A model generated the notes under the pieces. It had not been told where the DNA came from. It made no database searches and saw nothing but the letters and a program-made list of their open reading frames with translations. From positions 110,887 to 174,886 of the forward strand of contig JAJFHD010000011.1 of the NCBI GenBank assembly GCA_021775805.1: a stretch of 64,000 nucleotides of DNA. Reading direction: 5' to 3'. Made by a program: the position numbers and the translations under genes. Source of the DNA: Alphaproteobacteria bacterium. Lineage in GTDB: Bacteria > Pseudomonadota > Alphaproteobacteria > Rhizobiales > JAJFHC01. Below are positions 9,926-42,423 of this stretch, piece by piece. Each line of letters opens with the position of its first letter. Within the stretch, counting starts at the first letter, position 1.

Positions 9926-9932
9926 GTTCGGT

Positions 9933-10535: not shown

Positions 10536-10612
10536 GAGCGCACGGAGGCTTCTATGTGTTGCGGCACGCCGGCAGACTCCCCAAGAGTGACCATGGTGCA
10601 TTCAAGCACAGT

Positions 10613-10630
10613 TTTTACAGGTACGTAAAA
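10613..10630. promoter_or_regulatory. Putative TetR operator 1 (TTTTAC-N6-GTAAAA)
   Basis: TTTTACAGGTACGTAAAA upstream of tetR. A near-identical copy lies at 11691-11708. Confidence 0.65.
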
Positions 10631-11595: not shown

Positions 11596-11602
11596 CGTAA
11601 AA
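11586..11602. promoter_or_regulatory. Putative TetR operator 2 (TTTTAC-N5-GTAAAA)
   Basis: TTTTACATAACGTAAAA overlapping the stop codon of the EthD-like gene. Confidence 0.5.
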
Positions 11603-11690: not shown

Positions 11691-11708
11691 ATTTACAGGT
11701 TCGTAAAA
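11691..11708. promoter_or_regulatory. Putative TetR operator 3
   Basis: ATTTACAGGTTCGTAAAA, 16/18 identical to operator 1, ~90 bp upstream of the long catabolic operon. Confidence 0.65.
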
Positions 11709-11794: not shown

Positions 11795-12241
11795 GTGATG
11801 AACTATGACGCTTTTATCGGCAAGGAATACGAACCTTATTCGGCAACCGTCGATGAGGGCCGGATAAGGCAGTTTGCCGCGTCAGTAGGCCTGACGGATG
11901 CGGTCTATCATGACTTGCAGGCGGCACAATCCGCGGGGTATGCGGCCATTCCGGCGCCGCCAACCTTCGCCTTCACGATAGCCCTCGATGCCGGCCAACT
12001 CTTCAACATTACCGAAGACATGGGAATTCCGGCGACGCGGACCGTGCATGGAACCCAAGGGTTTTCGTATCACCGTCCGATTGTGGCCGGCGACGTGCTG
12101 CGTGGCCGGCAGAAGATCGCGCGATTGTACGAGAAGAAGGGCGGGGCACTGGTATTCATCGATGTTGAAAACAGACTTGAAGATGCCGATGGCGAACCGG
12201 TGTGCGACGTGCTTTCAACAGTGGTCGTGCGGGCAGGTTAA
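11795..12241 (+). CDS. MaoC-N/HadA-like hotdog dehydratase subunit
   Basis: IRQFAASVG, APPTF, VHGTQGFSYHRPIVAGD. Confidence 0.88.
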   Translation: MMNYDAFIGKEYEPYSATVDEGRIRQFAASVGLTDAVYHDLQAAQSAGYAAIPAPPTFAFTIALDAGQLFNITEDMGIPATRTVHGTQGFSYHRPIVAGDVLRGRQKIARLYEKKGGALVFIDVENRLEDADGEPVCDVLSTVVVRAG

Positions 12242-12261
12242 GGTGCGAGAGACTGGATAGC

Positions 12262-12678
12262 ATGACAGGAAATCTGGCTGATCTTGAAATTGGCGCATCG
12301 ATCCCGGAATGGGTTTGCGGCGCAATCACAAAGCAAGATCTTGCGGCCTTTGCGGCGGCCTCCGGCGATCACAATCCAATTCACCTGGACGAGTCCGCTG
12401 CGCAGGAAGCCGGGTTGCCTGGAATTATAGCACACGGCATGTACAACATGGCGCAGATGAGCCAGTTGTTGCTCCAGAATGTACCCCAGCGGGATATCCG
12501 CGCCTTTGAGGTGCGGTTCAAGGCGATGAGTCTCCCAGGCGATGTTGTCACCTGCGCCGGGGTTGTCACGAGTCGCAAGCCGGCTTCCGGCGAAACCCAT
12601 GTAGTGCTGTCGATATCGGCGCGCAACCAGGACGGCGTTGATATTCTTGCCGGATCGGCAACAATTGCGGTCAGGTAA
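12262..12678 (+). CDS. MaoC/HadB-like (R)-specific enoyl-CoA hydratase catalytic subunit
   Basis: Hydratase-2 motif FAAASGDHNPIHLD...IAHGM. Confidence 0.9.
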   Translation: MTGNLADLEIGASIPEWVCGAITKQDLAAFAAASGDHNPIHLDESAAQEAGLPGIIAHGMYNMAQMSQLLLQNVPQRDIRAFEVRFKAMSLPGDVVTCAGVVTSRKPASGETHVVLSISARNQDGVDILAGSATIAVR

Positions 12679-12728
12679 CAGATACAAGGCCCGGACGTCA
12701 CCGGGCACACTGAGCGATTGCGAAAACC

Positions 12729-13934
12729 ATGATGTACAAGGCAGAAATACCTTATGGCGCGTACTGGAGTACGCCTTACGCCAAGTGGCAGGGCAGTCTC
12801 GCCAATCTGAACAGCATCGAATTTGCAGCTCACGTGGCCAAGGCGGAACTGGAGAAACGGAGCATCGATCCGGCGTCCTTCGACTACGGCGTGCTTGGAA
12901 CCACGGTCCCCCAAAAACATTCGTTTTATGGTCTGCCCTGGTTCATGGGACAGATCGGTGCCGGCGGTGTCGGCGGTCCGACGATCAACCAGGCCTGTGC
13001 GACCGGGGTTAGATGTGTACTGGCGGCCGCCCAAGAGATCGAAAGCGGCATGGCATCCTGCGTCATGTCGGTTGCCGCGGACCGGACATCAAACGGTCCG
13101 CATATCTATTATCCCAGACCCGACGCGCCAGGCGGCACCGGCGATCATGAAAACTGGGTGATGGAAAATTTCAGCTGCGATCCCCTGGGCGGTCACTCGA
13201 TGCTGCAGACCGCGGAGAACGTGGCGGCCAAGCATCAGATCTCGACGGCGGAACAGCATGACGTCGTTTTGCGCCGCACCGAGCAATACGCCGCGGCACT
13301 GGATGACAAGTGCGCGTTTCAGGAACGCTACATGACATTGCCCTTCGATGTGCCCGACCCGAGATACCGGAAGGTTTCGGCATCCCTTCACGGCGATGAG
13401 GGGATAACGGATTCCAGTCAGGAAGGATTGTCGAAACTGCGCCCGGTGCTCCCCACCGGTACGGTTACGTTTGGCGGCCAAACCCACCCCGCTGACGGAA
13501 ACTCGGCAATCGTTGTCACAACGTCCGACAAGGCAAGGGAGTTGCGCAGAGATGACGGTATCCGGGTGCGTCTTCTTGGGTTCGGGTTGTCGCGGGTAGA
13601 TCTGGCCCATATGCCCGAAGCGCCTATTCCCGCGGCCAGGAACGCACTCGATCAGGCGGAAACTGATATTCAACACATCGACTGCGTCAAGACGCATAAT
13701 CCCTTTGCGGTCAATGACATTGTATTTTCCCGCCAAACAGGCTTCGATGTCTTGAAGATGAACAATTTCGGCTGTTCACTGATCTGGGGACACCCGCAGG
13801 GGCCGACGGGTGTGAGGTCGATCATCGAGTTGATCGAGGAACTCAAACAACGCGGTGGCGGCACTGGGTTGTTCACGGGCTGCGCGGCCGGCGATACCGC
13901 AATGGCGGTGGTACTGCAGGTGACAGAGGGGTAA
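12729..13934 (+). CDS. Thiolase
   Basis: INQACATG (catalytic Cys), GHPQGPTG, GCAAG. The usual NEAF motif is replaced by HNPF. Confidence 0.9.
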   Translation: MMYKAEIPYGAYWSTPYAKWQGSLANLNSIEFAAHVAKAELEKRSIDPASFDYGVLGTTVPQKHSFYGLPWFMGQIGAGGVGGPTINQACATGVRCVLAAAQEIESGMASCVMSVAADRTSNGPHIYYPRPDAPGGTGDHENWVMENFSCDPLGGHSMLQTAENVAAKHQISTAEQHDVVLRRTEQYAAALDDKCAFQERYMTLPFDVPDPRYRKVSASLHGDEGITDSSQEGLSKLRPVLPTGTVTFGGQTHPADGNSAIVVTTSDKARELRRDDGIRVRLLGFGLSRVDLAHMPEAPIPAARNALDQAETDIQHIDCVKTHNPFAVNDIVFSRQTGFDVLKMNNFGCSLIWGHPQGPTGVRSIIELIEELKQRGGGTGLFTGCAAGDTAMAVVLQVTEG

Positions 13935-13961
13935 CGCCATGCCAAGGATGAGGAGCAGATA

Positions 13962-16649
13962 GTGGGCACATCTGTCGGCATCGATGTTGGGGGCACGTTC
14001 ACGGATTTTCTGTTCGTGTCCGACGATGGCGTGCCGCGTATCCACAAGACGTTGTCGACGCCGCACGATCCCTCGATTGCAGTGATAACGGGGCTCTCGG
14101 AACTGGCCGCGGCCATGGACCCGCCGGTGTCCCTGAAGGATCTGGTGGCCGGTATCGAAACCATCGTGCACGGGACGACCGTGACCACCAATGCGACACT
14201 GACGCGGCATGGGGCAAAGACCGGCCTGATCACGACCGAAGGCGTGCGTGACGCGCTTGAAATGCGGCGCGGCATTCGCGAGGAACAGTACAACAACCGT
14301 TACACCAACGTGGAACCTCTCGTGCCGCGGTATTTGCGGGTGGGCTTGAGAGGCAGGCTCGATCGCAACGGACGGGAAATATCGGCGCTCAACCTGGACG
14401 CGCTTGATGATGCCATCGCCCTGTTTCAGGAAAACGACATTGAGGCCGTGGCAATCTGCTTCATGAACGCCTATGCCAATCCCGATCACGAGAAGACGGT
14501 GGCGCAACGGGTGCGCCAGTCCATGCCCGATGCCTATCTGAGCGTCTCTTCCCAGTTACTGCCGTCGATCAGGTTCTATGAACGCGTCAGCACCACTGTT
14601 TTGAACGCCTATATCGGTCCGATCCTCGATCGTTATCTGTCGAGCCTGGAAAACCGGCTCGAGCAGGAAGGGTTCGCGGGCAAGCTTCTTATCATGCAGT
14701 CCAATGGCGGGGTCACGGAACCCCGGACTGCCAGGGAAAGAGCTGCCTCAACGCTTTTGTCCGGGCCGGCTGCAGGACCCAGAGCCAGCCTTCACTATGC
14801 CGGCGCGCTTGGCCAGACGAAATGCATTGTCGTCGACATGGGCGGGACAAGCTTCGAGGCATCCCTCGTGGTCGATCGTCCGCTGATGGCGTCGACCGGA
14901 GAGATCGACCGCTTTCGTCTTGCACTACCGATGCTTGACATAAACACCATCGGGGCCGGTGGCGGTTCGATCGGCTGGATCGATAACGGCGGGCTCTTGC
15001 AGATGGGGCCGCAAAGTGCCGGTGCCGCACCTGGCCCCGCCTGTTACGGAAAAGGGGGCAAGAAGCCGACCACCACCGACGCCAACGTCATCCTCGGGTA
15101 TCTCGACCCGGGCTACTTCGCCGGGGGAACCATGTCGCTCGATGCGGTGGCCGCGCGCGCAGCGATTGACGAGTATGTGGCCAAGCCGCTGGGCCTCACC
15201 GTCGAACAGGCGGCGGCGGGCATGTACAAGGTCGCCTGCACGAACATGGCGGAAGGTGTGCGGGAGGTGACCGTCAAACGGGGACATGATCCCAGGGAGT
15301 TTGCCATGGTCGTCGCCGGTGGCGCCGGTGCGATTCATTCGAGCGAGATCTGCCGGGAGCTTGAAATCCCGATGCAGATTATCCCGCGGGAAGCGTCCAT
15401 TTTGTGTGCCGCCGGGATGTTGATGAGCGACCTCGAACACGATCATGTGCATACCTATGTGCGCCGCCTCGATACTCTCGATTTTGAGGATCTGGACAAG
15501 ATCGTCAAAGGCATTGTTGAAAGAGCTACACTGAAATTTGCCGCGGACCGAATTGCCGAAGAAAAGCGCTCGTTCCTGTGCACACTCGAGTGCCGGTACC
15601 TCAAGCAGTATCACGAGGTCGGCTTTCTGGTGCCCCTTGAGCAGATTGAAAATGGCGACCGCGAGGCCATTGCCAGTGCATTCCACGAGCAGCACAACAG
15701 TCTTTACGGCTACTCCTTGCGCGAACAGGGGGCGCCGATTGAAGTTGTCAATGTCCGCATTACGGCCATCGGCAAGACCGACAGACCGTCTTTCGCAAGG
15801 TCCATGCGTTTTGACGGAAATGTAGAACGGGCAAAAAAGGGCGCACGTTCAGTCTACATACCCGAAAGCGGCAGATTCGAAGCTGTGCAGATCTACAATG
15901 GCCACGTGCTCGGCCATGGCGACCTGGTCAAGGGTCCGGCCATAATCGAGCAGGAAACCACGGCAATCTTCGTCAGTCCGACGTACAACTGCGTGTGCGA
16001 CAGGTTCGGATCGTTTGTGGTCTTCGACAAGAAGCGACCGGAACTTGCATTGCTGGTCGCGACGGATGAGGAAAACATTGCTGAGGCAACTTCCGGCGAC
16101 GAAGGTTCGGTCGCGGGAGAGGATAGGGAAAACGGCTCGGCAGCACCGGACGCGGCATCTGTCACGGATGCGGAAACAGGTATCGCGGAGGAGCCTGCCG
16201 GCGTCGGCGCCGAGGAAGAAGACGAAGACGGAGCGTCGACCGGCAACCAACCCGATAACCTGGAAGCCGATGTGAACCCGGCGGCAACGGAGCCGTCAGG
16301 CGACCACACGACTTCGGTGGAAGAAGTCTCGGAAGAAGTGGCCGATGAGGCGACCGGCGGTGAGACGGGAGCCGGTGGTGACGAGGCCGGCGGCGACACC
16401 ATCGAACCGGCGAAGAGCGACGAGGATACCGGTGCAGACGACGTTAAATCCGGGGCGGACAGCGATGACGAAGGCTCAGAAGACGATGGGCCGGCGGAGG
16501 CGGTCGAAGCAGAGGCGGTTGGTGGCGCGGAAGCGGGTCGCGAAGAACAGGCCGAACCGGACGATGCCGTTGAAGACAGCACCGCTGGGGACGGCAACGA
16601 CGGGGATGACCGTCCGAACATGACGTCAGAACCGGAGGTGGTGTCGTGA
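13962..16649 (+). CDS. Hydantoinase A/oxoprolinase-family ATP-binding subunit with a long acidic C-terminal extension
   Basis: GIDVGGTFTD, HGTTVTTNA, SGPAAG, DMGGTS, IGAGGGSIG, GP.SAGA.PGPACYG, GPAIIE. The last ~200 aa are D/E/A/G-rich. Confidence 0.92.
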   Translation: MGTSVGIDVGGTFTDFLFVSDDGVPRIHKTLSTPHDPSIAVITGLSELAAAMDPPVSLKDLVAGIETIVHGTTVTTNATLTRHGAKTGLITTEGVRDALEMRRGIREEQYNNRYTNVEPLVPRYLRVGLRGRLDRNGREISALNLDALDDAIALFQENDIEAVAICFMNAYANPDHEKTVAQRVRQSMPDAYLSVSSQLLPSIRFYERVSTTVLNAYIGPILDRYLSSLENRLEQEGFAGKLLIMQSNGGVTEPRTARERAASTLLSGPAAGPRASLHYAGALGQTKCIVVDMGGTSFEASLVVDRPLMASTGEIDRFRLALPMLDINTIGAGGGSIGWIDNGGLLQMGPQSAGAAPGPACYGKGGKKPTTTDANVILGYLDPGYFAGGTMSLDAVAARAAIDEYVAKPLGLTVEQAAAGMYKVACTNMAEGVREVTVKRGHDPREFAMVVAGGAGAIHSSEICRELEIPMQIIPREASILCAAGMLMSDLEHDHVHTYVRRLDTLDFEDLDKIVKGIVERATLKFAADRIAEEKRSFLCTLECRYLKQYHEVGFLVPLEQIENGDREAIASAFHEQHNSLYGYSLREQGAPIEVVNVRITAIGKTDRPSFARSMRFDGNVERAKKGARSVYIPESGRFEAVQIYNGHVLGHGDLVKGPAIIEQETTAIFVSPTYNCVCDRFGSFVVFDKKRPELALLVATDEENIAEATSGDEGSVAGEDRENGSAAPDAASVTDAETGIAEEPAGVGAEEEDEDGASTGNQPDNLEADVNPAATEPSGDHTTSVEEVSEEVADEATGGETGAGGDEAGGDTIEPAKSDEDTGADDVKSGADSDDEGSEDDGPAEAVEAEAVGGAEAGREEQAEPDDAVEDSTAGDGNDGDDRPNMTSEPEVVS

Positions 16650-18355
16650 GCACAGTCGATCCCATCCTGCTGTCGGTCTATTCCAGAACCTTCAAGTCGA
16701 TTACCGACGAGATGAGCAATTCGGTTGCCCGCACGACGCGCTCGCCGATCCTGTGCGAGGCCAAGGACTTCGTGACCGGTCTTTACGACGAAGCGGGGAA
16801 TATGCTGGAGCAGACGGAGAACCTGCCGATCCTTGCGTTCTCTCTGGCACCGGTTTGCAAGTACATCATCGAGTTTTTCGGTGACGATATTCATCCCGGC
16901 GACGTGATCTTTCACAACGATGTCTTCAGCTTCGGCAACCAGAACAACGATGTTGCCGTCTACAAGCCGATCTTTCTCGAAGACGACCTGATCGGCTGGG
17001 CCGCGGTCAAGGGCCATCAGGCCGATATCGGCGGGGCGGTCCAGGGGGGCTACAATCCCAAGGCCACGGAAGTTTGGCAGGAAGCCCTTCGGATTCCACC
17101 GGTCAAGGTCTACGACAAGGGTGTGTTCCGCAAAGATGTCTGGGGCATGATCTTTGCCAATATCCGCCTGGAAATCGTCGAGCACGACATGCGCGCCCAG
17201 ATGGGTGCCGCCACCGTCGGCGAACGCCGCGTTCAGGCCCTCGTGGGCAAATACGGTGCCGAGCACTACCGGGCCCACAAGCAGGCCCTGTTCGAGTCGT
17301 CGCAGAAAATGATGGAAGCCGAAATCGAAAAGATTCCGAACGGCACCTATTCAGGACAGGGCAAGGTCTATTTCGATGGCCATCACGAAGGCACCATCTT
17401 CACGATCCGGGTAAAGATTACCGTCGAGGACAAGCGTATCCGGTTTGACTATTCCAACACCGACGCCCAGACCGACGGTTTCGTCAACGGCACTTACACC
17501 TCCAGTGCGTCGGCCACGGTGCTTACCCTGCTGCAACTGGTCGACCCGAACATTCCGCACAACCAGGGAATGCTCGAGCCCCTCGAGATCATCATTCCCG
17601 AGGGCACTATCCTCAATGCGAGTTATCCCAAAGCCACAACCTTCGGCAATCATCTGTGCCCACCGAACGCCGATGCGATCACACGCGCCCTGGCGCCGGC
17701 AATTCCCGATCGTGTCACGGCAGGATGGAACAACCTGCTGTGCTCCCTGACCACCGGCGTCGATCCGGAAAAGAACGAAACCTATGTCGATATCGGATTC
17801 ATGGGCCTCAAGGGCGGGTCGGGCGCCATGAAGGGGACCGACGGATACGACCACATCGGCATGATCGACGCCTCCGGCGGTGTGCTGGACCAGGATTACG
17901 AAATGTTCGAAGTCATGACGCCGCATATTCTATTGAAACACGAATATATCGAGGATTCCGGCGGCGCCGGACAGTGGCGCGGCGGACTCGGCGTCGAAAC
18001 CGGCTTTGTCATCGGGTCCCCGGACACGCAACTCGTGACGTTCGGCGATGGCGATTTCGAAGGCGCTTTCGGTCTATTGGGGGGGCGCGGCAGTATTCTG
18101 AACAGCATTGTCCTTGAATACCCGGACGGAACAAGAAGGGTCCCAAAGAACAAGGACCTGATCACCGGCGTTCCCAAAGGCACATACTATCATCAAGTTG
18201 CCGGTGGCGGCGGCGGTTACGGCGACCCGAAGAAACGGGACCGGGACAAACTCAGGGCCGAGGTGCGCAACGGTGTGATTTCCGAAAAGGCTGCGCGGGA
18301 GATATACAACCTTGCGGATGCCGACGTGTCCGGCGAACCTGCGGCCGAGTCGTGA
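16646..18355 (+). CDS. Hydantoinase B/oxoprolinase-family catalytic subunit
   Basis: EM...V.RT.RSP..E.KD, PGDV...ND, HQADIGG, DSGGAGQWRGGLG, GGGGYGDP. The GTG overlaps the upstream stop. Confidence 0.93.
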   Translation: MSTVDPILLSVYSRTFKSITDEMSNSVARTTRSPILCEAKDFVTGLYDEAGNMLEQTENLPILAFSLAPVCKYIIEFFGDDIHPGDVIFHNDVFSFGNQNNDVAVYKPIFLEDDLIGWAAVKGHQADIGGAVQGGYNPKATEVWQEALRIPPVKVYDKGVFRKDVWGMIFANIRLEIVEHDMRAQMGAATVGERRVQALVGKYGAEHYRAHKQALFESSQKMMEAEIEKIPNGTYSGQGKVYFDGHHEGTIFTIRVKITVEDKRIRFDYSNTDAQTDGFVNGTYTSSASATVLTLLQLVDPNIPHNQGMLEPLEIIIPEGTILNASYPKATTFGNHLCPPNADAITRALAPAIPDRVTAGWNNLLCSLTTGVDPEKNETYVDIGFMGLKGGSGAMKGTDGYDHIGMIDASGGVLDQDYEMFEVMTPHILLKHEYIEDSGGAGQWRGGLGVETGFVIGSPDTQLVTFGDGDFEGAFGLLGGRGSILNSIVLEYPDGTRRVPKNKDLITGVPKGTYYHQVAGGGGGYGDPKKRDRDKLRAEVRNGVISEKAAREIYNLADADVSGEPAAES

Positions 18356-18365
18356 TGAGGGTCTG

Positions 18366-19499
18366 ATGGACTTCAGTCTGAGTGCGGAGCAGAATCAGAT
18401 ACGGGAAACATTTGCACGTTTTTGCGATGAAGACATTGTTCCGCAGGCTGAGGCCCTAGACGAGGCCCATGCGTTTCCCAAAGACCTGTTCGAGAAACTC
18501 GGCACGTTGGGGTTTTTCGCCATGCGTTATCCCGAGGACCTCGGCGGTATCGACAGCGACCTGGTGACCCTTTGCATTGCGCTTGAAGAAATCGCCCGGG
18601 GATCGATGTCGCTGGCCGGCTGCGTGACGATGCAGTCGCTGATGGGCACCAAGTTTTTGCACATGCTCGGCAATGCGGACGTTCGCGAGCGGCTTCTTCT
18701 GCCGGCGCTCAAGGGCCATAAGATCGGCGGCATCTGCATGACCGAGCCGAATGCCGGCAGCGATCTGGGCGGGATTGCAACCAGGGCAACTAGAGTGGAT
18801 GGCGGCTACAGGCTCAACGGTCAGAAGATGTGGGTGACGTCGGCGCCTGTGGCGGACTTCTTTACGGTCTTTGCTAAAGCCGGTGATGAGGACGGGCTTA
18901 CGATTTTTCTGGTCGAGAAAGACTTCGATGGCCTGAAGGTCGGTCGCTCCATTGAAAAGATGGGTGTGCGGGCATTGCCGACGTCGGAAGTGGCCTTCGA
19001 GGACTGCTGCGTGCCTGACAGTCACGTGTTGAGCCGGGAAGAGGGCGACGGTCAGGCCCACTTGCGCCAGCTTCTGGCCGAAATCCGGATCGTGACCGGT
19101 GCCCTTGCCGTGGGCGGCGGGCGGGCGGCTCTCGACGAGGCCGTGCGGTACGCCGGCGAGCGGGCGCAGTTCGGCAAGCCGATCAACCGGTTTCAGGCGA
19201 TCCAGATGAAACTGGCGGAAATGGCGACCGATCTCGAAGCCGCGCGCCGGCTGGTGCACTACGCGGCCTGGCTCAAGGACGAAGGCAAGCCCCATCTCAA
19301 GGAAGCGTCGATGGCAAAGCTGTTTGCCTCGGAAGCCGCTGCCGATATCTGCGACAAGGCCGCCCGTGTTTTTGCGTCCTATGGATTTGCCATGGAGTAT
19401 CCGGTTCAACGTTTTCTGCGCGACATCCGTTTTACCCTGATTGGCGGCGGCACAAGCGAGATCTTGAAACTCGTCATCGCCAAGGAGGTGTCGTCATGA
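18366..19499 (+). CDS. Acyl-CoA dehydrogenase
   Basis: MTEPNAGSD, LNGQKMWVT, R.QFGKPI..FQAIQ, SMAKLFASE, IGGGTSEI. Confidence 0.93.
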   Translation: MDFSLSAEQNQIRETFARFCDEDIVPQAEALDEAHAFPKDLFEKLGTLGFFAMRYPEDLGGIDSDLVTLCIALEEIARGSMSLAGCVTMQSLMGTKFLHMLGNADVRERLLLPALKGHKIGGICMTEPNAGSDLGGIATRATRVDGGYRLNGQKMWVTSAPVADFFTVFAKAGDEDGLTIFLVEKDFDGLKVGRSIEKMGVRALPTSEVAFEDCCVPDSHVLSREEGDGQAHLRQLLAEIRIVTGALAVGGGRAALDEAVRYAGERAQFGKPINRFQAIQMKLAEMATDLEAARRLVHYAAWLKDEGKPHLKEASMAKLFASEAAADICDKAARVFASYGFAMEYPVQRFLRDIRFTLIGGGTSEILKLVIAKEVSS

Positions 19500-19891
19500 G
19501 TGATGCCAGGGTCCGTGTCCTTGTGGCGAAGCCGGGACTCGACGGTCATGATGTGGGCGCCAAGGTCGTTGTGCGGGCTCTCGTCGATGCCGGTTTCGAG
19601 GTCATCTATTCCGGCCTGCATCAGACACCGGAGAGCATTGCCAATGCAGCTCTGGAAGAAAGCGTCGATGTGATCGGACTATCGGTACTGTCGGGTGCGC
19701 ACATGCCGTTGTGCGAAAGGCTTCATGCGCTGATGATCGAACAGGGTCTGGAAGACAGGTTGTGGATCATCGGGGGCAACATTCCCGAAGCCGACCGGGA
19801 GGCGGTCAAGGCGTTCGGGTTCAGGGGCGTGTTTCCAACCTCCAGCAAGCTCGACGACATTGTCGGGTTCATACGGGAGAATGTGGCATGA
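19496..19891 (+). CDS. Cobalamin-binding small subunit of an acyl-CoA mutase
   Basis: AKPGLDGHDVGAKVV (DxHxxG), GLSVLSGAH, GGNIP. Confidence 0.95.
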   Translation: MSDARVRVLVAKPGLDGHDVGAKVVVRALVDAGFEVIYSGLHQTPESIANAALEESVDVIGLSVLSGAHMPLCERLHALMIEQGLEDRLWIIGGNIPEADREAVKAFGFRGVFPTSSKLDDIVGFIRENVA

Positions 19892-21501: not shown

Positions 21502-21534
21502 GTTTGGAGTATTGATGCCGGATACGACACGGAC

Positions 21535-22779
21535 ATGATTACCGGTACAATCATTTCGATGGAACAGGCGTTGTCGATGACCTATGCGACCCTGCGGTTC
21601 GTTCAACTGGGGTGGCGGGTGATCAAGGTCGAAGCCACGCCGCATCATCCAGGTGCACTGCCGGGCGATCCGAACCGGTATATCGGGTCGGTGGTGGCGG
21701 ACGAAGGCCGGCGTTCTTACTTCGTGGCGCCGAATGTGGGCAAGGAGTCGATCGCGCTCAACCTCAAATCCGAGGAAGGGCAGGCCGCGCTCGCGCGCAT
21801 CATCAAGGAACTCCAGGCAGACGTCTTCTGCTGCAACACACTACCGGCACGCTACGAGGAACTGGGGATTTCCTACCACCGCCTGAAACAGGTGAAACCC
21901 GATCTGATCTGGGCTGGGATCTCGGCCATGGGACCGGATTATCCTGATGCTGCTGGTTATGATCCGGCAATCCAGGCAATGGCCGGTTTCATGGATGTCA
22001 CCGGATCGGCTGACGGACCGCCGACGCTTTCCGGTATTCCGCTGGTCGATCTCAAGGCCGGCGATGAAGTGTTTTCCAACGTTTGGATGGCGCTTGCCGA
22101 AAGGGCTGTCAACGGAACCGGCAAACGGATCGATGTGTCGATGGTGCAATCCGCAGCATCCTGGCTGATCACCCTGCTGCCCCTGATCGACTTCGGCTGC
22201 GAGGACTGGGAACTGGGACGATGCGGCAACGAACACCGCAAGTTTGTGCCGACAAACGCCTACCCGACGCGCGACGGTGCCGTGCTGTTGGCGATCGGCA
22301 GCGACGCCCTGTGGCAACGGCTGGTGTCGCTGCCGAGGTTTGCCGGTGTGGCCAATGATGTTCGTTCGACCAATCAGGGCCGGGTTGCCGATCGTCATGC
22401 CATACACACCGACATTGCCGCGGCCACGAAGGCGCACACCACCGAGGAAGTCGTCGGCGACCTGAAACAGGCACGCATTCCCCATGCGCCGATCCGGACC
22501 GTGCGTGAAGCCATGGAGCTGGCGGCGATCTCGGACAAGCTGACATCGACGACGACCCCGGACGGGACGGTTGTCCGCATGCAGCCTTCCGCCGTCGATA
22601 CCGGTTTCGAGAAAAGCCATTTTTCATTTCCACCGCAATATGGCGAACACACGGAGGCGGTGCTTCGGGAGGTCGGATACGGCCCGGATGAAATAACAGC
22701 GCTCAATCGCCAGGGCGCCATAGCCGGTCCGGATGCGATCACTCCCCGGAACGACACGCAGGAGAAAGTCGGGACATGA
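21535..22779 (+). CDS. Class III (CaiB/BaiF) CoA-transferase
   Basis: [39 protein letters not shown] (catalytic Asp region), GEHTEAVL. Confidence 0.9.
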
Positions 22780-23603
22780 CAAAACTTGAAGGCAAGGTCG
22801 CCCTGGTGTCGGGCGCGGGACGGGGTATCGGGCAGGCGATTGCCCTCAAGCTTGCGAGTGAAGGGGCCAGGGTCGTGCTCAACGACATCGATGCCGATCC
22901 GGCCGCCGAGACGGTCGAGAAGATCAAAGCCCTGGGCGGCGACGCGGTGGCAGTGGTCGGCGATGTCACGCAAACCGATTTCGTGGCGACTTTCGTCAAC
23001 GCCGCCACGGAAAAGTTCGGCGGGCTGGACATCATCGTCAATAATGCAGGGTATTCCTGGGATACGGTCATCCAGAAGACCAGCGACGAACAGTTCGATG
23101 CCATGATGGATATCCACGTCAAGGCGCCGTTCAAGATATTGCGGGCAGCGGCCGACCCGATCCGGGCCATGGCGAAGGCGGAGGCCGCAGAGGGCAGAAG
23201 GGTGCATCGTAAGGTCGTCAACATTTCCTCTATCGGAGGGTTGTTCGGAAACGCCGGCCAGATCGGGTACGCCTCGGGTAAGACCGCCGTGGTTGGCATG
23301 ACCAAGACTCTGGCCAAGGAGTGGGGACGTTACGCCGTCAATGTCAACTGTGTGGCCTTCGGGTTTATCCAGACGCGGATGACGGAAGTCTTCGAGGCAG
23401 AGCCAAAACTCACCCAGGTTGGTGACCGGGAAATCCAGATGGGCGTGCCGGAGGAATTTGTCAAAGGGCTGAGCCGGATGATCCCTCTGGGAAGGCCCGG
23501 TACACCCGAGGACGCCGCTAATGCCGTCTATCTGTTCTGCATCCCGGAATCTGACTACATCAGCGGCGAGGTCGTGGTTGTCAGCGGAGGGCTCGTCATC
23601 TGA
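22776..23603 (+). CDS. SDR-family oxidoreductase (FabG/3-oxoacyl-CoA reductase-like)
   Basis: [29 protein letters not shown] (YxxxK). Confidence 0.92.
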
Positions 23604-23786
23604 TGGAAAGCCTGTGTTCTTTTGTGCAGAACAATGATTGAATTGGCGCTATCACGTTTGACCGGAATAAACTGCTCCGGTTACTGATGGGGCCAACATT
23701 CGAGCGGGAGGGCGTTGCAACCCTCCGAATAATTGTGACCGAGGGAGGCGGAGTTCGTCTGCAGGTCATCCAAAAGGAGGAAAAAA

Positions 23787-24803
23787 GTGTTGCACGATAA
23801 ATCAATTCTCAAATCCCTGGCCGTGGCCGCCGTCGTTACAGCGTCGGCCCTCATGCCAGGCAAGGCTCTGGCTGTCGACAAAGTGACGGCTGTTCACGCC
23901 TTCCCACCCTTCCTGGTCTACACCAAGACGTTTCTTGCCATGGTCGAGGACATCAACAAGAAGGGCAAAGGCGTCGTCGAGATCACCGTCAAGGGTGGTC
24001 CCGAAGCGATCGGAATGTTCCAGCAACCCAACGCCGTCAGTACCGGTGTTGTCGATATGGTTCACACGCCGGGCAGTTTCTATGGAGCCGAAGTGCCTGA
24101 AATCGATGCCATGGTGGCCTCAAAGTCAACGCCCATGGAAGTCCGCGCCAACGGTGGTGCGGCGATCATGGACGAAGTCCACCAGAAGCGCTTCAACGTC
24201 AAGCATCTGGGTTGGATCGATGCCGGCGTGCATTTCCACATCTATTCGGTCAATCCGCCGAAATTCCGGGACAACGGTCTGGTTGACCTCACTGGTGTGA
24301 AACTGCGCGACAATCCGATCTACCATGCCTTCTTCGAGGCCCTGAACGGCACAACGGCGTCGATGAAGGCGACGGAAGCATATGCTGCCCTCGAAAAGGG
24401 CACGATCGATGCCGCGGCCTGGACGTCCATCGGACTGATGCAGCTCAAGTGGGACAAGTTCCTGAAATACAGGGTCGATCCGGCCTTCTACACGACCGAC
24501 CTTGGCGTCATCATGAACAAGGATTCCTGGGACGGTCTGTCGGCTGAGTCCAAGAAGGTCATTCAGGACACGATCATCGAGTGGGAACAGAAATCCTTCG
24601 ATGCCCGCCAGGAAGACATCAAGAACGATGCCGCCGAACTCCAGAAACGCGGCATGAAATTTGTCTCACCCAGCGACGAGGGTGCTGCTGCCTATCTCAA
24701 ACTCGCCAACGATGCGTCGTGGGCGCGGATGAAGGGCCGTCTTGAGAAAAAGGGCGGTATGGAAAACTACGACAAACTGCGCAAGACCTATTTCAAGGAA
24801 TAG
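23787..24803 (+). CDS. dctP: TRAP transporter substrate-binding protein (DctP family)
   Basis: Signal peptide, DLTGVKLR with the carboxylate-binding Arg, EAYAALEKGTIDAA. AGGAGG RBS before the GTG. Confidence 0.9.
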   Translation: MLHDKSILKSLAVAAVVTASALMPGKALAVDKVTAVHAFPPFLVYTKTFLAMVEDINKKGKGVVEITVKGGPEAIGMFQQPNAVSTGVVDMVHTPGSFYGAEVPEIDAMVASKSTPMEVRANGGAAIMDEVHQKRFNVKHLGWIDAGVHFHIYSVNPPKFRDNGLVDLTGVKLRDNPIYHAFFEALNGTTASMKATEAYAALEKGTIDAAAWTSIGLMQLKWDKFLKYRVDPAFYTTDLGVIMNKDSWDGLSAESKKVIQDTIIEWEQKSFDARQEDIKNDAAELQKRGMKFVSPSDEGAAAYLKLANDASWARMKGRLEKKGGMENYDKLRKTYFKE

Positions 24804-24848
24804 GCAAGACTGAGCCCGAGCGAACGGTAACGAAGGAAACGTCCTGAT

Positions 24849-25343
24849 ATGCGGGTGATTGATCGAGTCTGTGATGCACTGGCGGTCCTTGCGGGGATCT
24901 ATCTGGTCGGCATCATGTTCGGCATCATCTTTCAGGCGACCGCCCGTTCGCTCGGGTATTCCGGTTCATCTCATGTTTTCACGTTCATTGAATTTGGACT
25001 GCTCTACATCGTCATGGCGGCCTCGCCCTGGCTGGTGCGCGAAAAGGGCCATGTCTTCATCGAGCTTCTGACAGCAGCCCTGCCGTCGTCGCTTACTGCG
25101 GGGTTCTCGAGGTTCGTATCGCTGCTCTGCGTGGTCCTGTGCCTTCTGCTGGTCTGGTACACGGGCGAGGCAACCTACAAGTCATTCCTCAAGGGCGATG
25201 CCGACATGCGTTCGATCGACATGCCGCGTTGGCTTCTTCTGATCAGCATGCCGATCTGTTTCGGACTTATGGCCTGCCAGTTTTCGCGTTTTGTCTTCGG
25301 ACCGGAGACCCTTCACAGCGGCGAAGCCGGTGTCCATGAATAG
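24849..25343 (+). CDS. dctQ: TRAP transporter small permease (DctQ)
   Basis: Four hydrophobic segments, REKGHVFIELL, located between dctP and dctM. Confidence 0.88.
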   Translation: MRVIDRVCDALAVLAGIYLVGIMFGIIFQATARSLGYSGSSHVFTFIEFGLLYIVMAASPWLVREKGHVFIELLTAALPSSLTAGFSRFVSLLCVVLCLLLVWYTGEATYKSFLKGDADMRSIDMPRWLLLISMPICFGLMACQFSRFVFGPETLHSGEAGVHE

Positions 25344-25385
25344 GGACAGGGCGGCAACGCTGAAGATGCCGGAAGGGGGGCAGAG

Positions 25386-26723
25386 ATGGAGTGGTATGTA
25401 GCCCTCGGCTTTCTGCTGGGTACCGTCCTGTTCTTCATGGCATTGGGGCTGCCCGTGGCCCTCGCGTTCCTGGCGGCGAATGTGTTTGGGGCAATCTATT
25501 TCATGGGCGGGAGCGGCGACCTGACCGTGCAGATGACGCGAGGCATATCCCAGCTTGCCCGCAATGCGATCCCGACGGTGTCGACCTTCAATCTTGTGCC
25601 GGTGCCGATGTTCCTTCTGATGGGAGAGCTGTTTTTCCATACCAGGTTGGCCAACCGGATGTTCAGTGCGATCGAACAGCTGATGGGCAGCATCCCTGGA
25701 CGACTGTCCTACGTTACGGTCGCCGGTGGCACGGCTTTCGCCACCCTGTCAGGTTCCTCCATGGGCAGCACCGCCCTTCTGGGTACCCTGATGGTGCCGG
25801 ACATGACGGGACGGGGCTACAAGAAACACATGGTTATCGGGCCGATTCTCGGTACCGGCGGGCTGGCCATGCTGATCCCGCCGTCGGCGCTTGCGGTGTT
25901 GCTGGCGACGCTCGCCAATCTCGATGTGGGCAGATTGCTGATCGCGGGCGCCGGGCCAGGACTGCTTCTGGCGTGTTTCTACGTCGTCCTGATTTACGTT
26001 CAGTGCCGGATTGATCCCAGTGCTGCACCAAACTACGACGTGGAAAGGATTTCGCTAGGCGCACGGGCGCTGCTGTTTGTGCGCGACGTGCTTCCCATGC
26101 TTGCCATCGTGGTTGCCGTCATCGCCCTGATGCTGATCGGCTGGGCGACGCCGTCGGAATCTGCCGCTTTCGGCTGTCTTGGGGTGCTGATCGCGGCCAT
26201 TGCCTACCGGTCGCTCACCTGGGACAGCATCAAGAAGTCTGTGATGGGCGCCCTGCGGGTCACAACCATGGCGCTGCTGATCATATTCGGATCGGCGACG
26301 TTTTCAGCCCTGCTTGCGTTTTCAGGCGCCAGTTCAGGGCTGATCAACTGGGCGACCGGATATGAGCTGGCGCCGATTGCCATGCTGCTTGTGATGTTCT
26401 GCATCCTTCTCGTGCTCGGCATGTTCATGGACCAGCTTTCCATGATGCTGCTGACGGTGCCGATATTCTTTCCCCTGGCGGAGACGCTCGGGTTCGATCT
26501 GATCTGGTTTGCGGTTATAATTCTGCTGGCACTGGAGATCAGCTTTACGACGCCGCCATTCGGACTTCTGCTGTTCGTCATGAAGGGCGTGTCGCCGCCG
26601 GGGACAACCATGCGTGAAATCTACATGGCGGCGATCCCGTTCATGGCCTGCGCGATGCTGGTTGTGGCACTGCTGATCCTGTTTCCCCAGATTGCCCTGT
26701 TCCTGCCCGGACTCGGGAACTGA
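25386..26723 (+). CDS. dctM: TRAP transporter large permease (DctM)
   Basis: PVPMFLLMGEL, SGSS, LIPPS, ATPSESAA, TPPFG. Confidence 0.93.
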   Translation: MEWYVALGFLLGTVLFFMALGLPVALAFLAANVFGAIYFMGGSGDLTVQMTRGISQLARNAIPTVSTFNLVPVPMFLLMGELFFHTRLANRMFSAIEQLMGSIPGRLSYVTVAGGTAFATLSGSSMGSTALLGTLMVPDMTGRGYKKHMVIGPILGTGGLAMLIPPSALAVLLATLANLDVGRLLIAGAGPGLLLACFYVVLIYVQCRIDPSAAPNYDVERISLGARALLFVRDVLPMLAIVVAVIALMLIGWATPSESAAFGCLGVLIAAIAYRSLTWDSIKKSVMGALRVTTMALLIIFGSATFSALLAFSGASSGLINWATGYELAPIAMLLVMFCILLVLGMFMDQLSMMLLTVPIFFPLAETLGFDLIWFAVIILLALEISFTTPPFGLLLFVMKGVSPPGTTMREIYMAAIPFMACAMLVVALLILFPQIALFLPGLGN

Positions 26724-26763
26724 AGGCAGACGACAATTTCAAAGGTTTTGAAGAAGGCATTCG

Positions 26764-28143
26764 ATGATGGACTACGGACGGATCGAAGGACAGATACAGG
26801 CTGAACTCACAGCGGTATTCGGAGACCGGCTGACCCTGTCGCCCGGTATTTTGGAACAGCATGGCCGTGATGAGTCCTACCATCCGGTACGCGCGCCCGA
26901 CGCGGTCGCGTTTCCGCGGTCCACCGACGAGGTCGCCCAGGCGATGCGTATCTGCACCAAGCATCGTGTGCCGGTTGTCCCGTTCGGCGCCGGAACCTCG
27001 CTGGAGGGGCATATCTCCGCGGTCCATGGCGGGCTCTGCATCGACTTTGCCGAAATGAACGAAGTGCTCAGCGTCAGCGCCGAGGACATGGACGCCACAG
27101 TTCAGCCCGGCGTGCGGCGGCGCCAACTCAACGAATATCTTCGCGACACCGGACTGTTCTTCTCCGTCGACCCGGGAGCCGATGCCTCGATCGGCGGCAT
27201 GGCTTCGACTAGGGCGTCCGGGACCAATGCGGTACGTTACGGCACCATGCGCGAAGTCGTGATGGGGCTGACGGTCGTGCTGGCCGACGGCCGTGTCATC
27301 GAAACCGGGGGACGCAGCCGGAAGTCGGCCGCAGGTTATGATCTCACGCGGTTGCTGGTGGGGGCTGAGGGAACGCTGGGCGTTATCACCAGCCTGACCG
27401 TCCGGTTGTTCCCGCAACCTGAGCAGATACTCTCCGCGGTGGTGACGTTTGACACCATGGGCGACGCCGTCACATCGGTGATCGAGACCATGCAGATGGG
27501 CGTCCAGGTGGCGCGCATCGAGTTCGTCGACGAAGTCCAGATCGATGCCATCAACCGGTACTCGAAACTCAACCTGGCGCTAAAGCCCACCCTGTTTCTT
27601 GAGTTTCACGGGTCAGAAATCGTCACGCGCGAGCAGATCGGGATCGTCACGGAAATCTGCGAAGGCAATGGTGGTGGCGATTTCGAGTGGGCGTCACAGC
27701 TTGAAGACCGGAACCGGTTGTGGCGTGCGCGACACGATGCGGCCTACGCCGCCCTTGCCGTCAGGCCCGGATGCCGCGCGGTGGTGACGGACATCTGCGT
27801 ACCGATTTCGCAATTGAGCGAATGCATCCTCGAAGCGCGCCGGCTGATCGATGCCTCGCCGCTCACCGGTATGAATGTCGGTCATGCGGGCGACGGCAAT
27901 TTCCATTCCGTCCTGCTGGTTGACCCAAAAGACAAGAGCGAGGTCGAAACGGCAAAGAACGTCAATGCCCAACTGGTGGAATTGGCCTTGTCGAAGGGCG
28001 GGACGTGTACCGGCGAACACGGGATTGGTCTCGGCAAGCGCGAGTTTCTGGCTCAGGAAGCAGGCGAAGGAATCGATGTCATGCGCGACATCAAGACGGC
28101 ACTCGACCCGCTCGGTATTCTCAACCCCGGCAAGATCATGTGA
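26764..28143 (+). CDS. FAD-linked oxidase (D-lactate/2-hydroxyacid dehydrogenase, GlcD-like)
   Basis: PFGAGTSLEGH, DPGADASIGGM, RKSAAGYDLT, GHAGDGNFH, TGEHGIG, LNPGK. Confidence 0.92.
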   Translation: MMDYGRIEGQIQAELTAVFGDRLTLSPGILEQHGRDESYHPVRAPDAVAFPRSTDEVAQAMRICTKHRVPVVPFGAGTSLEGHISAVHGGLCIDFAEMNEVLSVSAEDMDATVQPGVRRRQLNEYLRDTGLFFSVDPGADASIGGMASTRASGTNAVRYGTMREVVMGLTVVLADGRVIETGGRSRKSAAGYDLTRLLVGAEGTLGVITSLTVRLFPQPEQILSAVVTFDTMGDAVTSVIETMQMGVQVARIEFVDEVQIDAINRYSKLNLALKPTLFLEFHGSEIVTREQIGIVTEICEGNGGGDFEWASQLEDRNRLWRARHDAAYAALAVRPGCRAVVTDICVPISQLSECILEARRLIDASPLTGMNVGHAGDGNFHSVLLVDPKDKSEVETAKNVNAQLVELALSKGGTCTGEHGIGLGKREFLAQEAGEGIDVMRDIKTALDPLGILNPGKIM

Positions 28144-33050: not shown

Positions 33051-33301
33051 TTGTCTGGTCCATTCCAGGTCAGTGTCGCGAACGTTGCGTTCGCTAAGCC
33101 AAAACCGAAAAATCAGTCTCAGTGTTTATTGATGCAAACAAGGCCAAATCTGATGCACACAAGCGACATTTGATGAAACGGAGACGCCCTTCCTGCAGAA
33201 ATAGGAAGTCTGGCGGGGGTTTGTTTTTCAGCCTATGGACAAAATCGCCGGCCGGCTTCAGAGTCGACCTGTCTTGCGGCACAGATATTTGGAGATCACC
33301 C

Positions 33302-42334: not shown

Positions 42335-42423
42335 CGTCTTACGCCAAATTTGCCGAGAGCTTTGCGTGCAATTTGTAATCACGTTCACATAATGGCACAT
42401 AATCGATAACAACCAAAATTCGC

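Follow-up and report, generated by a model that had tools for sequence, protein, structure and literature searches.

A probable rearranged counterpart of the Aromatoleum indoleacetate (iaa) cluster in an alphaproteobacterial genome

The anaerobic iaa pathway for indoleacetate in Aromatoleum was reportedly described by Ebenau-Jehle in 2012 and Schuhle in 2016. According to PMC8360864 and PMC9613470, the iaa locus (iaaABCDEFGHIJKLMPQR) of A. aromaticum EbN1 and A. evansii KB740 converts indoleacetate anaerobically to 2-aminobenzoyl-CoA. PMC8360864 names GGG in place of YEG as the signature of IaaF, and gives WP_011664634 of Rhodopseudomonas palustris as an IaaF orthologue. We located the iaa locus of Aromatoleum buckelii with the published EbN1 iaaF primer, and its Pfam content fits the order A-B-C-E-F-G-H-I-J-K-L-M. 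Identities to Aromatoleum given below refer to this locus and not to the A. aromaticum or A. evansii proteins on which the biochemistry was done.

The window, a stretch of 64,000 nucleotides, belongs to an alphaproteobacterial MAG of 6.6 Mb with an estimated contamination of 7.86% (G000). Between positions 11795 and 28143 it carries about 15 genes, all on the plus strand and in one co-directional run: a MaoC pair, a thiolase, hydantoinase A and B, an acyl-CoA dehydrogenase (ACAD), a split B12 mutase, a class III CoA-transferase, an SDR, a TRAP PQM transporter and an FAD oxidase. The initial annotation had listed these genes, and we found all of them in place, with Pfam scores far above the curated cut-offs; it was also correct that the run itself lacks a molybdenum enzyme and a CoA ligase. 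The consecutive junctions are +20, +50, +27, −4, +10, −4, −4, +33, −4, +183, +45, +42 and +40 bases (negative values are overlaps); none overlaps by more than 4 bases, and the 183-base gap 5' of dctP is the only one above 50 bases. A consensus scan found 7 promoter-like sites against 6.0 in shuffles and 20 terminator-like sites against 16.1, no excess over the shuffles and thus neutral as to a single transcript. No RNA run contained this stretch.

IaaA, C, E, F, G, H and L of A. buckelii matched seven window proteins collinearly at 60.9-75.9% identity, and each of the seven is the sole strong match within the G000 genome. Judged from these sequence comparisons, the core is orthologous to iaa, which is more than mere similarity. 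The likeness to Aromatoleum proposed earlier was thus closer than assumed, with 61-76% identity, the same order and the GGG motif in the ACAD. The thiolase (12729..13934, Pfam Thiolase_N/C) is 69.5% identical to IaaA over 400 aa; this match scores 580 bits in the G000 genome, and the next best 108. The IaaC orthologue (13962..16649), the hydantoinase-A-type subunit of a predicted ATP-dependent lactam hydrolase, carries Hydant_A_N, Hydantoinase_A and Hydant_A_C at residues 5-682 and is 62.8% identical to IaaC over 705 aa. Its C-terminus is an unusual poly-acidic tail of 191 residues (16074-16646), and such a tail is also present in the sister genome G002. The IaaE orthologue (16646..18355), of the hydantoinase-B type, scores 470 bits with Hydantoinase_B and is 75.9% identical to its counterpart.

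The IaaF orthologue (18366..19499), a putative decarboxylating (2-aminobenzyl)malonyl-CoA / benzylmalonyl-CoA dehydrogenase, has four ACAD Pfam domains and is 74.3% identical to A. buckelii IaaF and 78% to a R. palustris BisA53 protein. Its ORF opens at 18312, the likely start being M19 at 18366. LIGGGTSEI replaces the IYEGTSE of ordinary ACADs, and the GGG is conserved in all 15 relatives examined. The split B12-dependent acyl-CoA mutase consists of the small B12-binding subunit IaaG (19496..19891; Pfam B12-binding, TIGR00640 at 135 bits, above cut-off; 61.9% identity) and the large subunit IaaH (19888..21501; MM_CoA_mutase, 624 bits; 70.5%), whose ATG lies in an ATGA overlap. This architecture is shared with 2-hydroxyisobutyryl-CoA mutase HcmAB (4r3u is the best solved relative of the window IaaH, 474 bits) and methylmalonyl-CoA mutase; however, IaaH reaches only 519.9 against the methylmalonyl-CoA mutase equivalog cut-off of 876. 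By orthology, it would convert 2-aminophenylsuccinyl-CoA to 2-aminobenzylmalonyl-CoA. The IaaL orthologue (21535..22779), a class III CoA-transferase of the phenylsuccinyl-CoA transferase type, scores 225 bits with CoA_transf_3 and is 60.9% identical to IaaL.

Around this core, G000 differs from Aromatoleum in several respects, the acidic IaaC tail being one. iaaB and iaaIJK lie outside the cluster, in other operons on other contigs, and we found no match to an IaaM-type binding protein in the G000 genome. Added are the MaoC pair, the SDR, an EthD-like protein, a TetR with a palindromic operator, an opine-dehydrogenase-like protein, a 3-hydroxyacyl-CoA dehydrogenase and the D-lactate-dehydrogenase-like oxidase. 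Alphaproteobacterial iaa clusters were mapped as well, including those of G027, G459 and G521.

The MaoC pair, the SDR, the TetR with its conserved palindrome and the TRAP recur in these clusters. A HadA-like, non-catalytic-type MaoC/hot-dog hydratase subunit (11795..12241; FAS1_DH_region, 126 bits; the NCBIfam HadA-like model below cut-off) opens the run, as it opens those of G027 (51%) and G459 (56%). It is followed by the HadB-like subunit of a putative (R)-specific enoyl-CoA hydratase (12262..12678; MaoC_dehydratas, 81 bits; 47% and 56%), whose ORF spans 12202-12678 with a likely ATG start at 12262. The SDR (22776..23603, adh_short) has a homologue (63-67%) immediately 3' of iaaL in G027, G140, G293 and G459, and, as judged from its sequence, probably acts as a 3-hydroxyacyl-CoA dehydrogenase in beta-oxidation. 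This recurrence fits the earlier proposal of beta-oxidation by (R)-specific MaoC/SDR enzymes.

The TRAP transporter comprises DctP (23787..24803), the small membrane subunit DctQ (24849..25343) and the large membrane subunit DctM (25386..26723; TIGR00786 above cut-off), each recognized by the Pfam domain of the same name. Identities to G002 and G027, where the transporter also adjoins the iaa cluster, are 79% and 69% for DctP, 85% and 73% for DctQ, and 90% and 79% for DctM; the TRAP near the A. buckelii iaa genes is more distant (DctP 33%, DctM 46%). The carboxylate-binding Arg that the initial annotation had noticed in DctP is present, LTGVKLRD aligning with K-I-R of 4mnc, the closest solved TRAP binding protein (152 bits). 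The last gene of the run (26764..28143; FAD_binding_4 and FAD-oxidase_C) encodes an FAD-linked D-lactate / D-2-hydroxyacid dehydrogenase-like oxidoreductase.

Upstream of the run lies a divergent operon on the minus strand. It begins with a TetR-family regulator (9933..10601; TetR_N and TetR_C_24), continues with an opine (octopine) dehydrogenase-family protein (8831..9964; Octopine_DH and NAD_Gly3P_dh_N) and ends with a 3-hydroxyacyl-CoA dehydrogenase (7854..9134; 3HCDH_N and 3HCDH; NF006125, 503 bits against a cut-off of 427). The domain of the latter begins near residue 103 of the ORF, and its true start is therefore probably about 8830. Homologues of both enzymes adjoin iaa clusters in G002, G302 and G422 (79%, 61% and 58% for the opine dehydrogenase; 59%, 45% and 44% for the 3-hydroxyacyl-CoA dehydrogenase). 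Between tetR and the MaoC genes, an EthD-like protein is encoded on the plus strand (10852..11595; TIGR02118 weak, 30.9 bits against 30.5), with homologues beside TetR in G002 (49%) and G027 (40%). Three palindromes are candidate operators: TTTAC-N6-GTAAA at 10614..10629, 13 bases 5' of where tetR starts; TTTAC-N5-GTAAA at 11587..11601, upstream of the MaoC genes; and TTTAC-N6-GTAAA at 11692..11707, which precedes the first catabolic gene by about 90 bases. Only 0.03 such palindromes are expected in the window, and three of the six matches in the 6.6-Mb genome lie at this locus. Of 14 mapped relatives, seven have a TetR homologue (47-60%) next to their iaa cluster, and six of these seven carry the palindrome in the TetR-iaa intergenic region. 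TetR is probably a repressor of the iaa unit that would act through these three palindromes.

Outside the window, IaaI, IaaJ and IaaK were found at 18328-21963 of contig C73 with 51, 58 and 55% identity (next best matches 32-43%), and the match is reciprocal-best (925 against 454 bits). The C73 IaaK is 81% identical to the cluster-linked IaaK of G459, 72% to that of G293, 70% to that of G791 and 69% to that of G140. On C73, iaaIJK are tightly packed in one operon, preceded by genes for an Rrf2 regulator, a benzoate-CoA-ligase-family protein, an SDR and a B12-radical-SAM protein. On contig C49, a ligase with 47-48% identity to IaaB is likewise reciprocal-best (457 against 193 bits); in the tree it falls inside the IaaB clade (support 100/99) as a separate long-branched subclade. 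Its operon, syntenic with G002 (62-90%), also encodes an alpha/beta hydrolase, an ACAD-like protein and a TRAP of its own. The composition of both contigs is typical for the G000 genome; that they come from the same cell as the core rests on binning, composition and a similar divergence from G002. The palindrome is absent from the C73 and C49 loci, even with one mismatch allowed.

Among 18 alphaproteobacterial genomes with IaaF, 17 have IaaK and 12 have it inside the cluster, with iaaIJK sitting between iaaH and iaaL where the window has a 33-base spacer; five of 14 mapped clusters retain iaaB. The window and G002 clusters contain neither. IaaK was found in none of 38 relatives without IaaF. 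G459 joins all three pieces: the MaoC pair precedes A-B-C-E-F-G-H, and across a contig break follow K-L-SDR, a TRAP of the C49 type and NnrS. G002, whose complete genome is a single contig, carries the same cluster, also without IJK, with about 22 bases between iaaH and iaaL; it has no IaaK at E<=1e-150, and apart from one piece of 73 bases its DNA shows no match to the IJK stretch. An iaa core can thus persist without IaaIJK.

The initial annotation had proposed a different entry step, with a preformed lactam as substrate. The core, however, is highly identical to Iaa proteins, and other loci of the genome encode IaaIJK and an IaaB-clade ligase; the run is therefore better read as a rearranged iaa cluster, as the initial annotation itself had expected for such a finding. 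One could still suppose that the G000/G002 core works independently of IaaIJK and IaaB: the TRAP would import 2-oxindole-3-acetate, a plant auxin catabolite, IaaCE would open it directly and IaaL would activate the product from succinyl-CoA, while the C73 genes served another pathway or organism. The close iaaH-iaaL junctions without trace of IJK, the missing IaaK orthologue in the complete G002 genome, the separate regulator and partner genes of C73 and C49 together with their lack of the palindrome, and the acidic lactamase tails of both genomes are in its favour, as is an intermolecular CoA transfer by IaaL from succinyl-CoA, reported in the Fig. 1 legend of PMC8360864. We nevertheless consider it unlikely, as G000 does possess an IaaIJK 69-81% identical to cluster-embedded sets, IaaK was absent from the 38 relatives without IaaF, and G000 and G002, being kin, count as one evolutionary event. 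The transporter, earlier taken to indicate a preformed substrate, is no pointer to one, because the same TRAP (69-79%) lies behind the same palindrome beside the IJK-containing cluster of G027. Given the state of G002, entry of a preformed lactam in the G000/G002 family is weakened but retains some probability.

It seems very improbable that the substrate is an unrelated carboxylated lactam or a hydantoin-like compound, such as a pyrrolidone or caprolactam-type acid, broken down by the same reaction logic, and that the likeness to iaa stems only from shared enzyme families. The two hydantoinase subunits do belong to the two-subunit Hydantoinase_A/B family of caprolactamase CapAB, ATP-dependent hydantoinase, oxoprolinase and acetophenone carboxylase, and their best NCBIfam models are caprolactamase alpha and beta; moreover, GGG-type ACADs are paired with divergent hydantoinases in G091 and G264 (27-34% to IaaC/E) and in a paralogous set on contig C4 of G293. 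However, the caprolactamase scores of 684.6 and 378.3 bits are well under the equivalog cut-off of 1000, whereas the 63-76% identity to Aromatoleum IaaC/E in a context of seven collinear genes favours IaaC/E and is far above the 27-55% of the sets that are truly divergent. PMC8360864 reports the IaaF subclass solely from iaa operons. Scarcely credible as a whole is the view that the run holds two units, with the TRAP and FAD oxidase serving to take up and oxidize a D-2-hydroxyacid independently of the adjoining iaa genes. The 183-base SDR-dctP gap contains a GC-rich hairpin and, in the genome-wide motif search, no cluster palindrome; the oxidase is nearest to mitochondrial D-lactate dehydrogenase (8jdc, 519 bits) and in each of the 12 genomes searched has homologues (53-61%) that are not linked to iaa. 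Against it, the palindrome-preceded TRAP of G027 travels with the iaa cluster without an oxidase, and the A. buckelii iaa genes also have a TRAP nearby. This view plausibly holds for the FAD oxidase alone, which is in-cluster only in G000 and G002 and is probably no pathway enzyme but a co-directional passenger specific to this family.

Taken together, the run is probably a true iaa-cluster counterpart, a rearranged member of the known indoleacetate pathway rather than a new pathway, with its modules spread over three contigs. We propose that the TRAP imports a carboxylate, most likely indoleacetate, and that IaaIJK from C73 would hydroxylate indole C2 to give the 2-oxindole lactam, possibly after CoA activation by the C49 ligase. 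The steps past the lactam are modeled on the characterized Aromatoleum enzymes. ATP-dependent ring opening by IaaC/IaaE would give (2-aminophenyl)succinate or its CoA ester, and IaaL may set CoA on the correct carboxyl or transfer it from succinyl-CoA. The CoA transfer, B12 rearrangement and beta-oxidation foreseen by the initial annotation follow from orthology of the core to iaa, as does a decarboxylating dehydrogenation. IaaGH would thus form (2-aminobenzyl)malonyl-CoA, and the GGG-type IaaF would oxidize and decarboxylate it to 2-aminocinnamoyl-CoA. The MaoC pair, the SDR and the thiolase IaaA may then shorten the side chain to yield 2-aminobenzoyl-CoA and acetyl-CoA, in a genome whose downstream capacity includes benzoyl-CoA reductase subunit A (795 bits) and BoxB (897 bits), both above cut-off.

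The gene run that the initial annotation described at 11795-28143 on the plus strand was recovered by Pfam analysis. It opens with a FAS1_DH/MaoC-N protein (11795-12241) and a MaoC dehydratase (ORF 12202-12678, likely start 12262), followed by a thiolase (IaaA, 12729-13934), Hydantoinase_A (IaaC, 13962-16649), Hydantoinase_B (IaaE, 16646-18355), an acyl-CoA dehydrogenase (ACAD; IaaF, likely start 18366), a B12-binding protein (IaaG, 19496-19891), a MM_CoA_mutase large subunit (IaaH, 19888-21501, with an ATGA start), and a class III CoA-transferase (IaaL, 21535-22779). An SDR (22776-23603), the TRAP subunits DctP, DctQ, and DctM (23787-26723), and an FAD-linked oxidase (26764-28143) complete the run, all on the plus strand. 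From first to last, the junctions measure +20, +50, +27, −4, +10, −4, −4, +33, −4, +183, +45, +42, and +40 bases. A scan with consensus promoters and terminators showed no enrichment over shuffles (7 against 6.0 promoter-like and 20 against 16.1 terminator-like sites). On Pfam content, the run contains neither a ligase nor a Mo-enzyme gene, as had been stated. No AMP-binding gene was found by Pfam between 7854 and 28143, which places iaaB outside the cluster, and the 33 bases between iaaH and iaaL hold no IaaIJK genes.

PMC8360864 describes IaaF as the iaa-operon enzyme for decarboxylating dehydrogenation of benzylmalonyl-CoA, reports that it and all its orthologues have GGG in place of the catalytic YEG motif of acyl-CoA dehydrogenases, and states that genes of this subclass always lie in iaa-type operons. 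The window dehydrogenase has the GGG, its LIGGGTSEI aligning with IYEGTSE of 4n5f, the closest solved ACAD. For a reference locus, we used the 22 gene-specific bases of the EbN1 iaaF primer, as published, to scan genome contigs. One of the 29 matching loci (L028, Aromatoleum buckelii U120) was of the iaa type, and the other 28 were unrelated ACADs with the same N-terminal codons. A. aromaticum itself was absent from these matches, and A. buckelii was taken as its stand-in. Within 40 kb around this locus (Pfam and blastp), the order is thiolase, AMP ligase, HydA, HydB, ACAD, B12 subunit, mutase, FAD subunit, 2Fe-2S subunit, Mo subunit, CoA-transferase, and a Peripla_BP_6 binding protein; a TRAP QMP set lies beyond these genes. 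This order agrees with the iaaA-M lettering in the relevant part of PMC9613470.

Identities between the window and A. buckelii, which is not one of the biochemically studied strains, were 69.5% for IaaA, 62.8% for IaaC, 75.9% for IaaE, 74.3% for IaaF, 61.9% for IaaG, 70.5% for IaaH, and 60.9% for IaaL, all seven being collinear. In the reverse search, each of these A. buckelii proteins had one outstanding match in the genome under study (G000), inside the window. Competing NCBIfam names scored below their cut-offs: the caprolactamase (CapAB) equivalogs gave 684.6 and 378.3 bits against 1000, and the methylmalonyl-CoA mutase equivalog NF006944 gave 519.9 against 876; for the mutase, the generic domain models TIGR00640 and TIGR00641 alone passed. 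Given the collinear identities, the single reverse matches, and these scores, sequence comparison indicates that the core is orthologous to iaa, beyond the mere similarity of core order noted in the initial annotation.

The genome, a MAG recovered from a biofilm metagenome, comprises 152 contigs (98.9% complete, 7.86% contamination), and the window is C3:110887-174886. A. buckelii IaaI, IaaJ, and IaaK match three adjacent genes on another contig, C73, at 50.7, 57.9, and 55.3% identity, the next best matches being at 32-43%. In the return search, the top A. buckelii match of the C73 large subunit is IaaK at 925 bits, with the runner-up at 454. This reciprocal-best set places IaaIJK in the genome but outside the cluster. 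In a whole-genome search, the match to IaaB was a contig C49 ligase (46.7% identity; next, 31%), whose best match in A. buckelii is in turn IaaB (457 against 193 bits). In a maximum-likelihood tree of 22 sequences, the C49 ligase and its counterparts in the sister genome G002 and the relative G027 form a subclade (100/99), nested in a clade (100/99) with A. buckelii IaaB and cluster-embedded IaaBs and set apart from five paralogue lineages. The idea of a different entry step, acting on a preformed lactam, had been offered together with what would speak against it, namely high Iaa identity in a genome that has iaaIJK and iaaB at other loci, and this is what was observed.

The C73 genes form a tightly packed operon behind an Rrf2 regulator (L035:5552-15196), comprising a benzoate-CoA-ligase-family gene (TIGR02262, 807 bits), an SDR, a B12-binding radical-SAM gene (HpnR/BchE-like), an unknown gene, the IaaI-J-K-like genes, and NnrS. 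NnrS also follows iaa genes in three relatives (G140, G293, and G459), and in A. buckelii it is found some 14 kb away from iaaL. The IaaB-clade ligase of C49 shares its operon (L036:6959-14630, minus strand) with genes for an unknown 353-aa protein, an alpha/beta hydrolase, and an ACAD-like protein, as well as with a second TRAP PQM set. This operon has a syntenic counterpart in G002 (62-90% identity). Ligase and TRAP occur together in G027 too, and the C49 TRAP type is found inside the G459 iaa cluster.

Two genes in the window itself were considered as substitutes for the Mo-hydroxylase. A 736-aa Mo-binding large subunit of the xanthine-dehydrogenase family (36407-38617, minus strand) has a LysR regulator and an unknown 309-aa ORF on one side and a DHDPS-family gene on the other; it was rejected as an IaaK substitute on its 28% identity, its LysR/DHDPS context, and the lack of an adjacent FeS/FAD subunit. 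The FAD-linked oxidase has mitochondrial D-lactate dehydrogenase as its best solved relative (519 bits). Its homologues (53-61%) are unlinked to iaa in 12 of 12 genomes searched, A. buckelii included, and a copy inside the cluster occurs in G000 and G002 only. Being D-lactate-dehydrogenase-like, with homologues unlinked to iaa, it is unlikely to replace the Mo-hydroxylase, and we treat it as a family-specific passenger.

IaaF-type genes are patchy, occurring in 3 of the 41 closest relatives, in 11 of 401 class-sampled genomes (E≤1e-140), and in 8 of 401 order-sampled genomes (E≤1e-170), which combine to 18 distinct genomes including G000. A search with the C73 IaaK finds an orthologue in 17 of these 18. 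In 12 of them (G027, G042, G140, G188, G205, G293, G302, G422, G450, G521, G559, and G791) it shares a contig with the ACAD, 4-6 kb past that gene; in G459 the cluster is broken by nothing but a contig end; and in G091, G127, and G264 the contig with the ACAD stops at the cluster, leaving linkage beyond judgement. G000 has IaaK on a different contig, with the iaaH-iaaL junction intact. G002, a single complete contig, yielded no IaaK orthologue at E≤1e-150, and its sole DNA match to the IJK stretch was a 73-base piece. At the same threshold IaaK was found in 0 of 38 relatives without IaaF, indicating that IaaK is specific to the pathway.

Gene order was mapped in 14 of the 17 other genomes, with G450, G559, and G791 judged from coordinates alone, and in 9 of the 14 iaaB is not part of the cluster. 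In G027, TRAP, EthD-like, and TetR genes on the minus strand are followed by MaoC pair-A-C-E-F-G-H-I-J-K-L-SDR. In G459, TetR is followed by MaoC pair-A-B-C-E-F-G-H, a contig break, K-L-SDR, the C49-type TRAP, and NnrS, and its IaaK is 81% identical to that on C73. The three G000 loci (core on C3, IJK-NnrS on C73, and ligase-TRAP on C49) thus match pieces of a single relative's cluster. C73 and C49 are ordinary for G000 in GC content and tetranucleotide composition, and the DNA of the C73 genes shares about 76% identity with genes of G002. Some relatives carry divergent sets. On its contig C4 (L071), G293 has a second, paralogous set for ligase, mutase with its B12 subunit, and both hydantoinase subunits (HydB and HydA), with an identity to Iaa proteins of only 36-55%; in G091 and G264 (L046/L053), a GGG-type ACAD (66-67%) is paired with hydantoinase subunits that share 27-34% identity with IaaC/E. 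These sets look like candidates for an iaa-like pathway on another substrate.

Uptake here is by TRAP, and an IaaM-type binding protein was not found: tblastn with A. buckelii IaaM (Peripla_BP_6 type) against the whole of G000 gave 0 matches at E≤1e-10. The nearest solved relative of DctP is 4mnc (152 bits); 4mnc and the weaker matches 4nap, 4pgn, and 4pgp are presumably binders of aromatic 2-oxo or indole acids. All three TRAP subunits (Pfam DctP, DctQ, and DctM) are present, and the carboxylate-binding Arg noted for DctP was confirmed, the Arg of LTGVKLRD aligning with that of 4mnc, as in TRAP systems for carboxylates. This conserved Arg is understood, in part from PMC4646407, as a selectivity filter. 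The TRAP had also been taken as a sign of a pre-oxidised substrate. That view finds no support, since a TRAP 69-79% identical to the window's accompanies the IJK-containing cluster of G027.

Further downstream in the pathway, G000 has genes for benzoyl-CoA reductase subunit A (795 bits with TIGR02259, cut-off 578), neighboured by a second BcrAD-type ATPase gene, and BoxB (897 bits against 499), so that 2-aminobenzoyl-CoA could undergo further processing. Several other window loci may be recorded here. Two MTHFR-family genes on opposite strands (30324-31220, plus; 31390-32415, minus), a DUF5981 'MTHFR C-terminal' gene (32412-33050, minus), and a 743-aa Oxidored_FMN plus Pyr_redox_2 protein (33122-35353, plus) may constitute a methyl-group or demethylation module. 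Aerobic hydroxylation and cleavage of aromatic rings nearby is suggested by the region 48621-52325, which encodes two aromatic hydroxylases of the FAD_binding_3 type (one scoring 292 bits) along with a 352-aa cupin protein. Caspase-domain (Peptidase_C14) proteins are encoded at 5068-6600 and 40787-42481 (both minus), and the latter also has a Sel1 repeat.

Among the 14 mapped relatives, the MaoC pair heads the cluster in two and an SDR directly follows iaaL in four, a recurrence that supports the role proposed for them in beta-oxidation of a cinnamoyl-type intermediate. A divergent TetR gene occurs in seven, an opine-DH-like gene with a 3-hydroxyacyl-CoA dehydrogenase in three, and the window-type TRAP in two. 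Three copies of the palindrome TTTAC-N5/6-GTAAA lie in the window (10614-10629, 11587-11601, and 11692-11707), against 0.03 expected, and the entire 6.6-Mb genome has six. The sites flank an EthD-like gene, one lying 13 bases before tetR (9933-10601, minus) and two before the MaoC genes. The palindrome recurs in the TetR-iaa intergenic region of six of the seven relatives with an adjacent TetR (G027, G188, G302, G422, G459, and G521), and G027 has a further copy before its TRAP genes; it is not present in the TetR-iaa intergenic region of G002. It is a plausible candidate operator of the iaa-linked TetR regulator. None was found at the C73 and C49 loci or in the SDR-dctP gap with one mismatch allowed, and its absence from C73 and C49 gives no support for common regulation of the dispersed modules.

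IaaC ends in an in-frame, low-complexity, poly-acidic C-terminal tail of 191 residues (16074-16646; E34, A31, D28, G27; net charge −57). In G002 it is the hydantoinase-B subunit instead of A, IaaE (L040/L041), that has a tail, of 300 residues (D84, E46; net −111). The remaining 12 mapped IaaC/E pairs leave no room for a tail, and lactamase tails occur in exactly these two genomes.

One way of reading these features is that the iaa core of the G000/G002 family became detached from the Mo-hydroxylase and now salvages plant-made 2-oxindole-3-acetate. The compound would be taken up by the TRAP, its lactam opened directly in an ATP-dependent manner by the acidic-tailed IaaCE, and CoA supplied via IaaL from succinyl-CoA. 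G002, without any IaaK, would be the pure form, and G000 a mixed form that would have regained the IJK-NnrS module by transfer. Such a transfer is drawn from the relationships of the two proteins: the C73 IaaK is 69-81% identical to those of G459, G293, G140, and G791 and 53-56% to those of G188, G027, G450, and G521, and the window's IaaF is as close or closer to the latter group (74-86%) as to the former (71-76%). We consider this reading, taken as a whole, rather unlikely. To judge from gene content and order, the run is a real, coherent catabolic cluster, an iaa member with lineage-specific rearrangement and not a pathway with a new entry step. What is left as new is the IJK-less state common to G000 and G002, the conserved TetR operator, and the lactamase tails. 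No description of IJK-less clusters was found in the literature searched, and the gene comparisons of Ebenau-Jehle 2012 and Schuhle 2016 may already have them.

Compared with the mapped A. buckelii locus, the alphaproteobacterial version usually adds the MaoC pair, the SDR, and the TetR gene with its conserved TTTAC-N6-GTAAA operator; the TRAP is also counted among these features. The main value of the analysis lies in annotation. By a simple naming rule, the GGG motif plus neighbourhood, the labels 'butyryl-CoA dehydrogenase', 'hydantoinase', and 'methylmalonyl-CoA mutase' can here be replaced by iaa names, and a well-supported iaa-type auxin degradation system is placed in an uncultured biofilm alphaproteobacterium.
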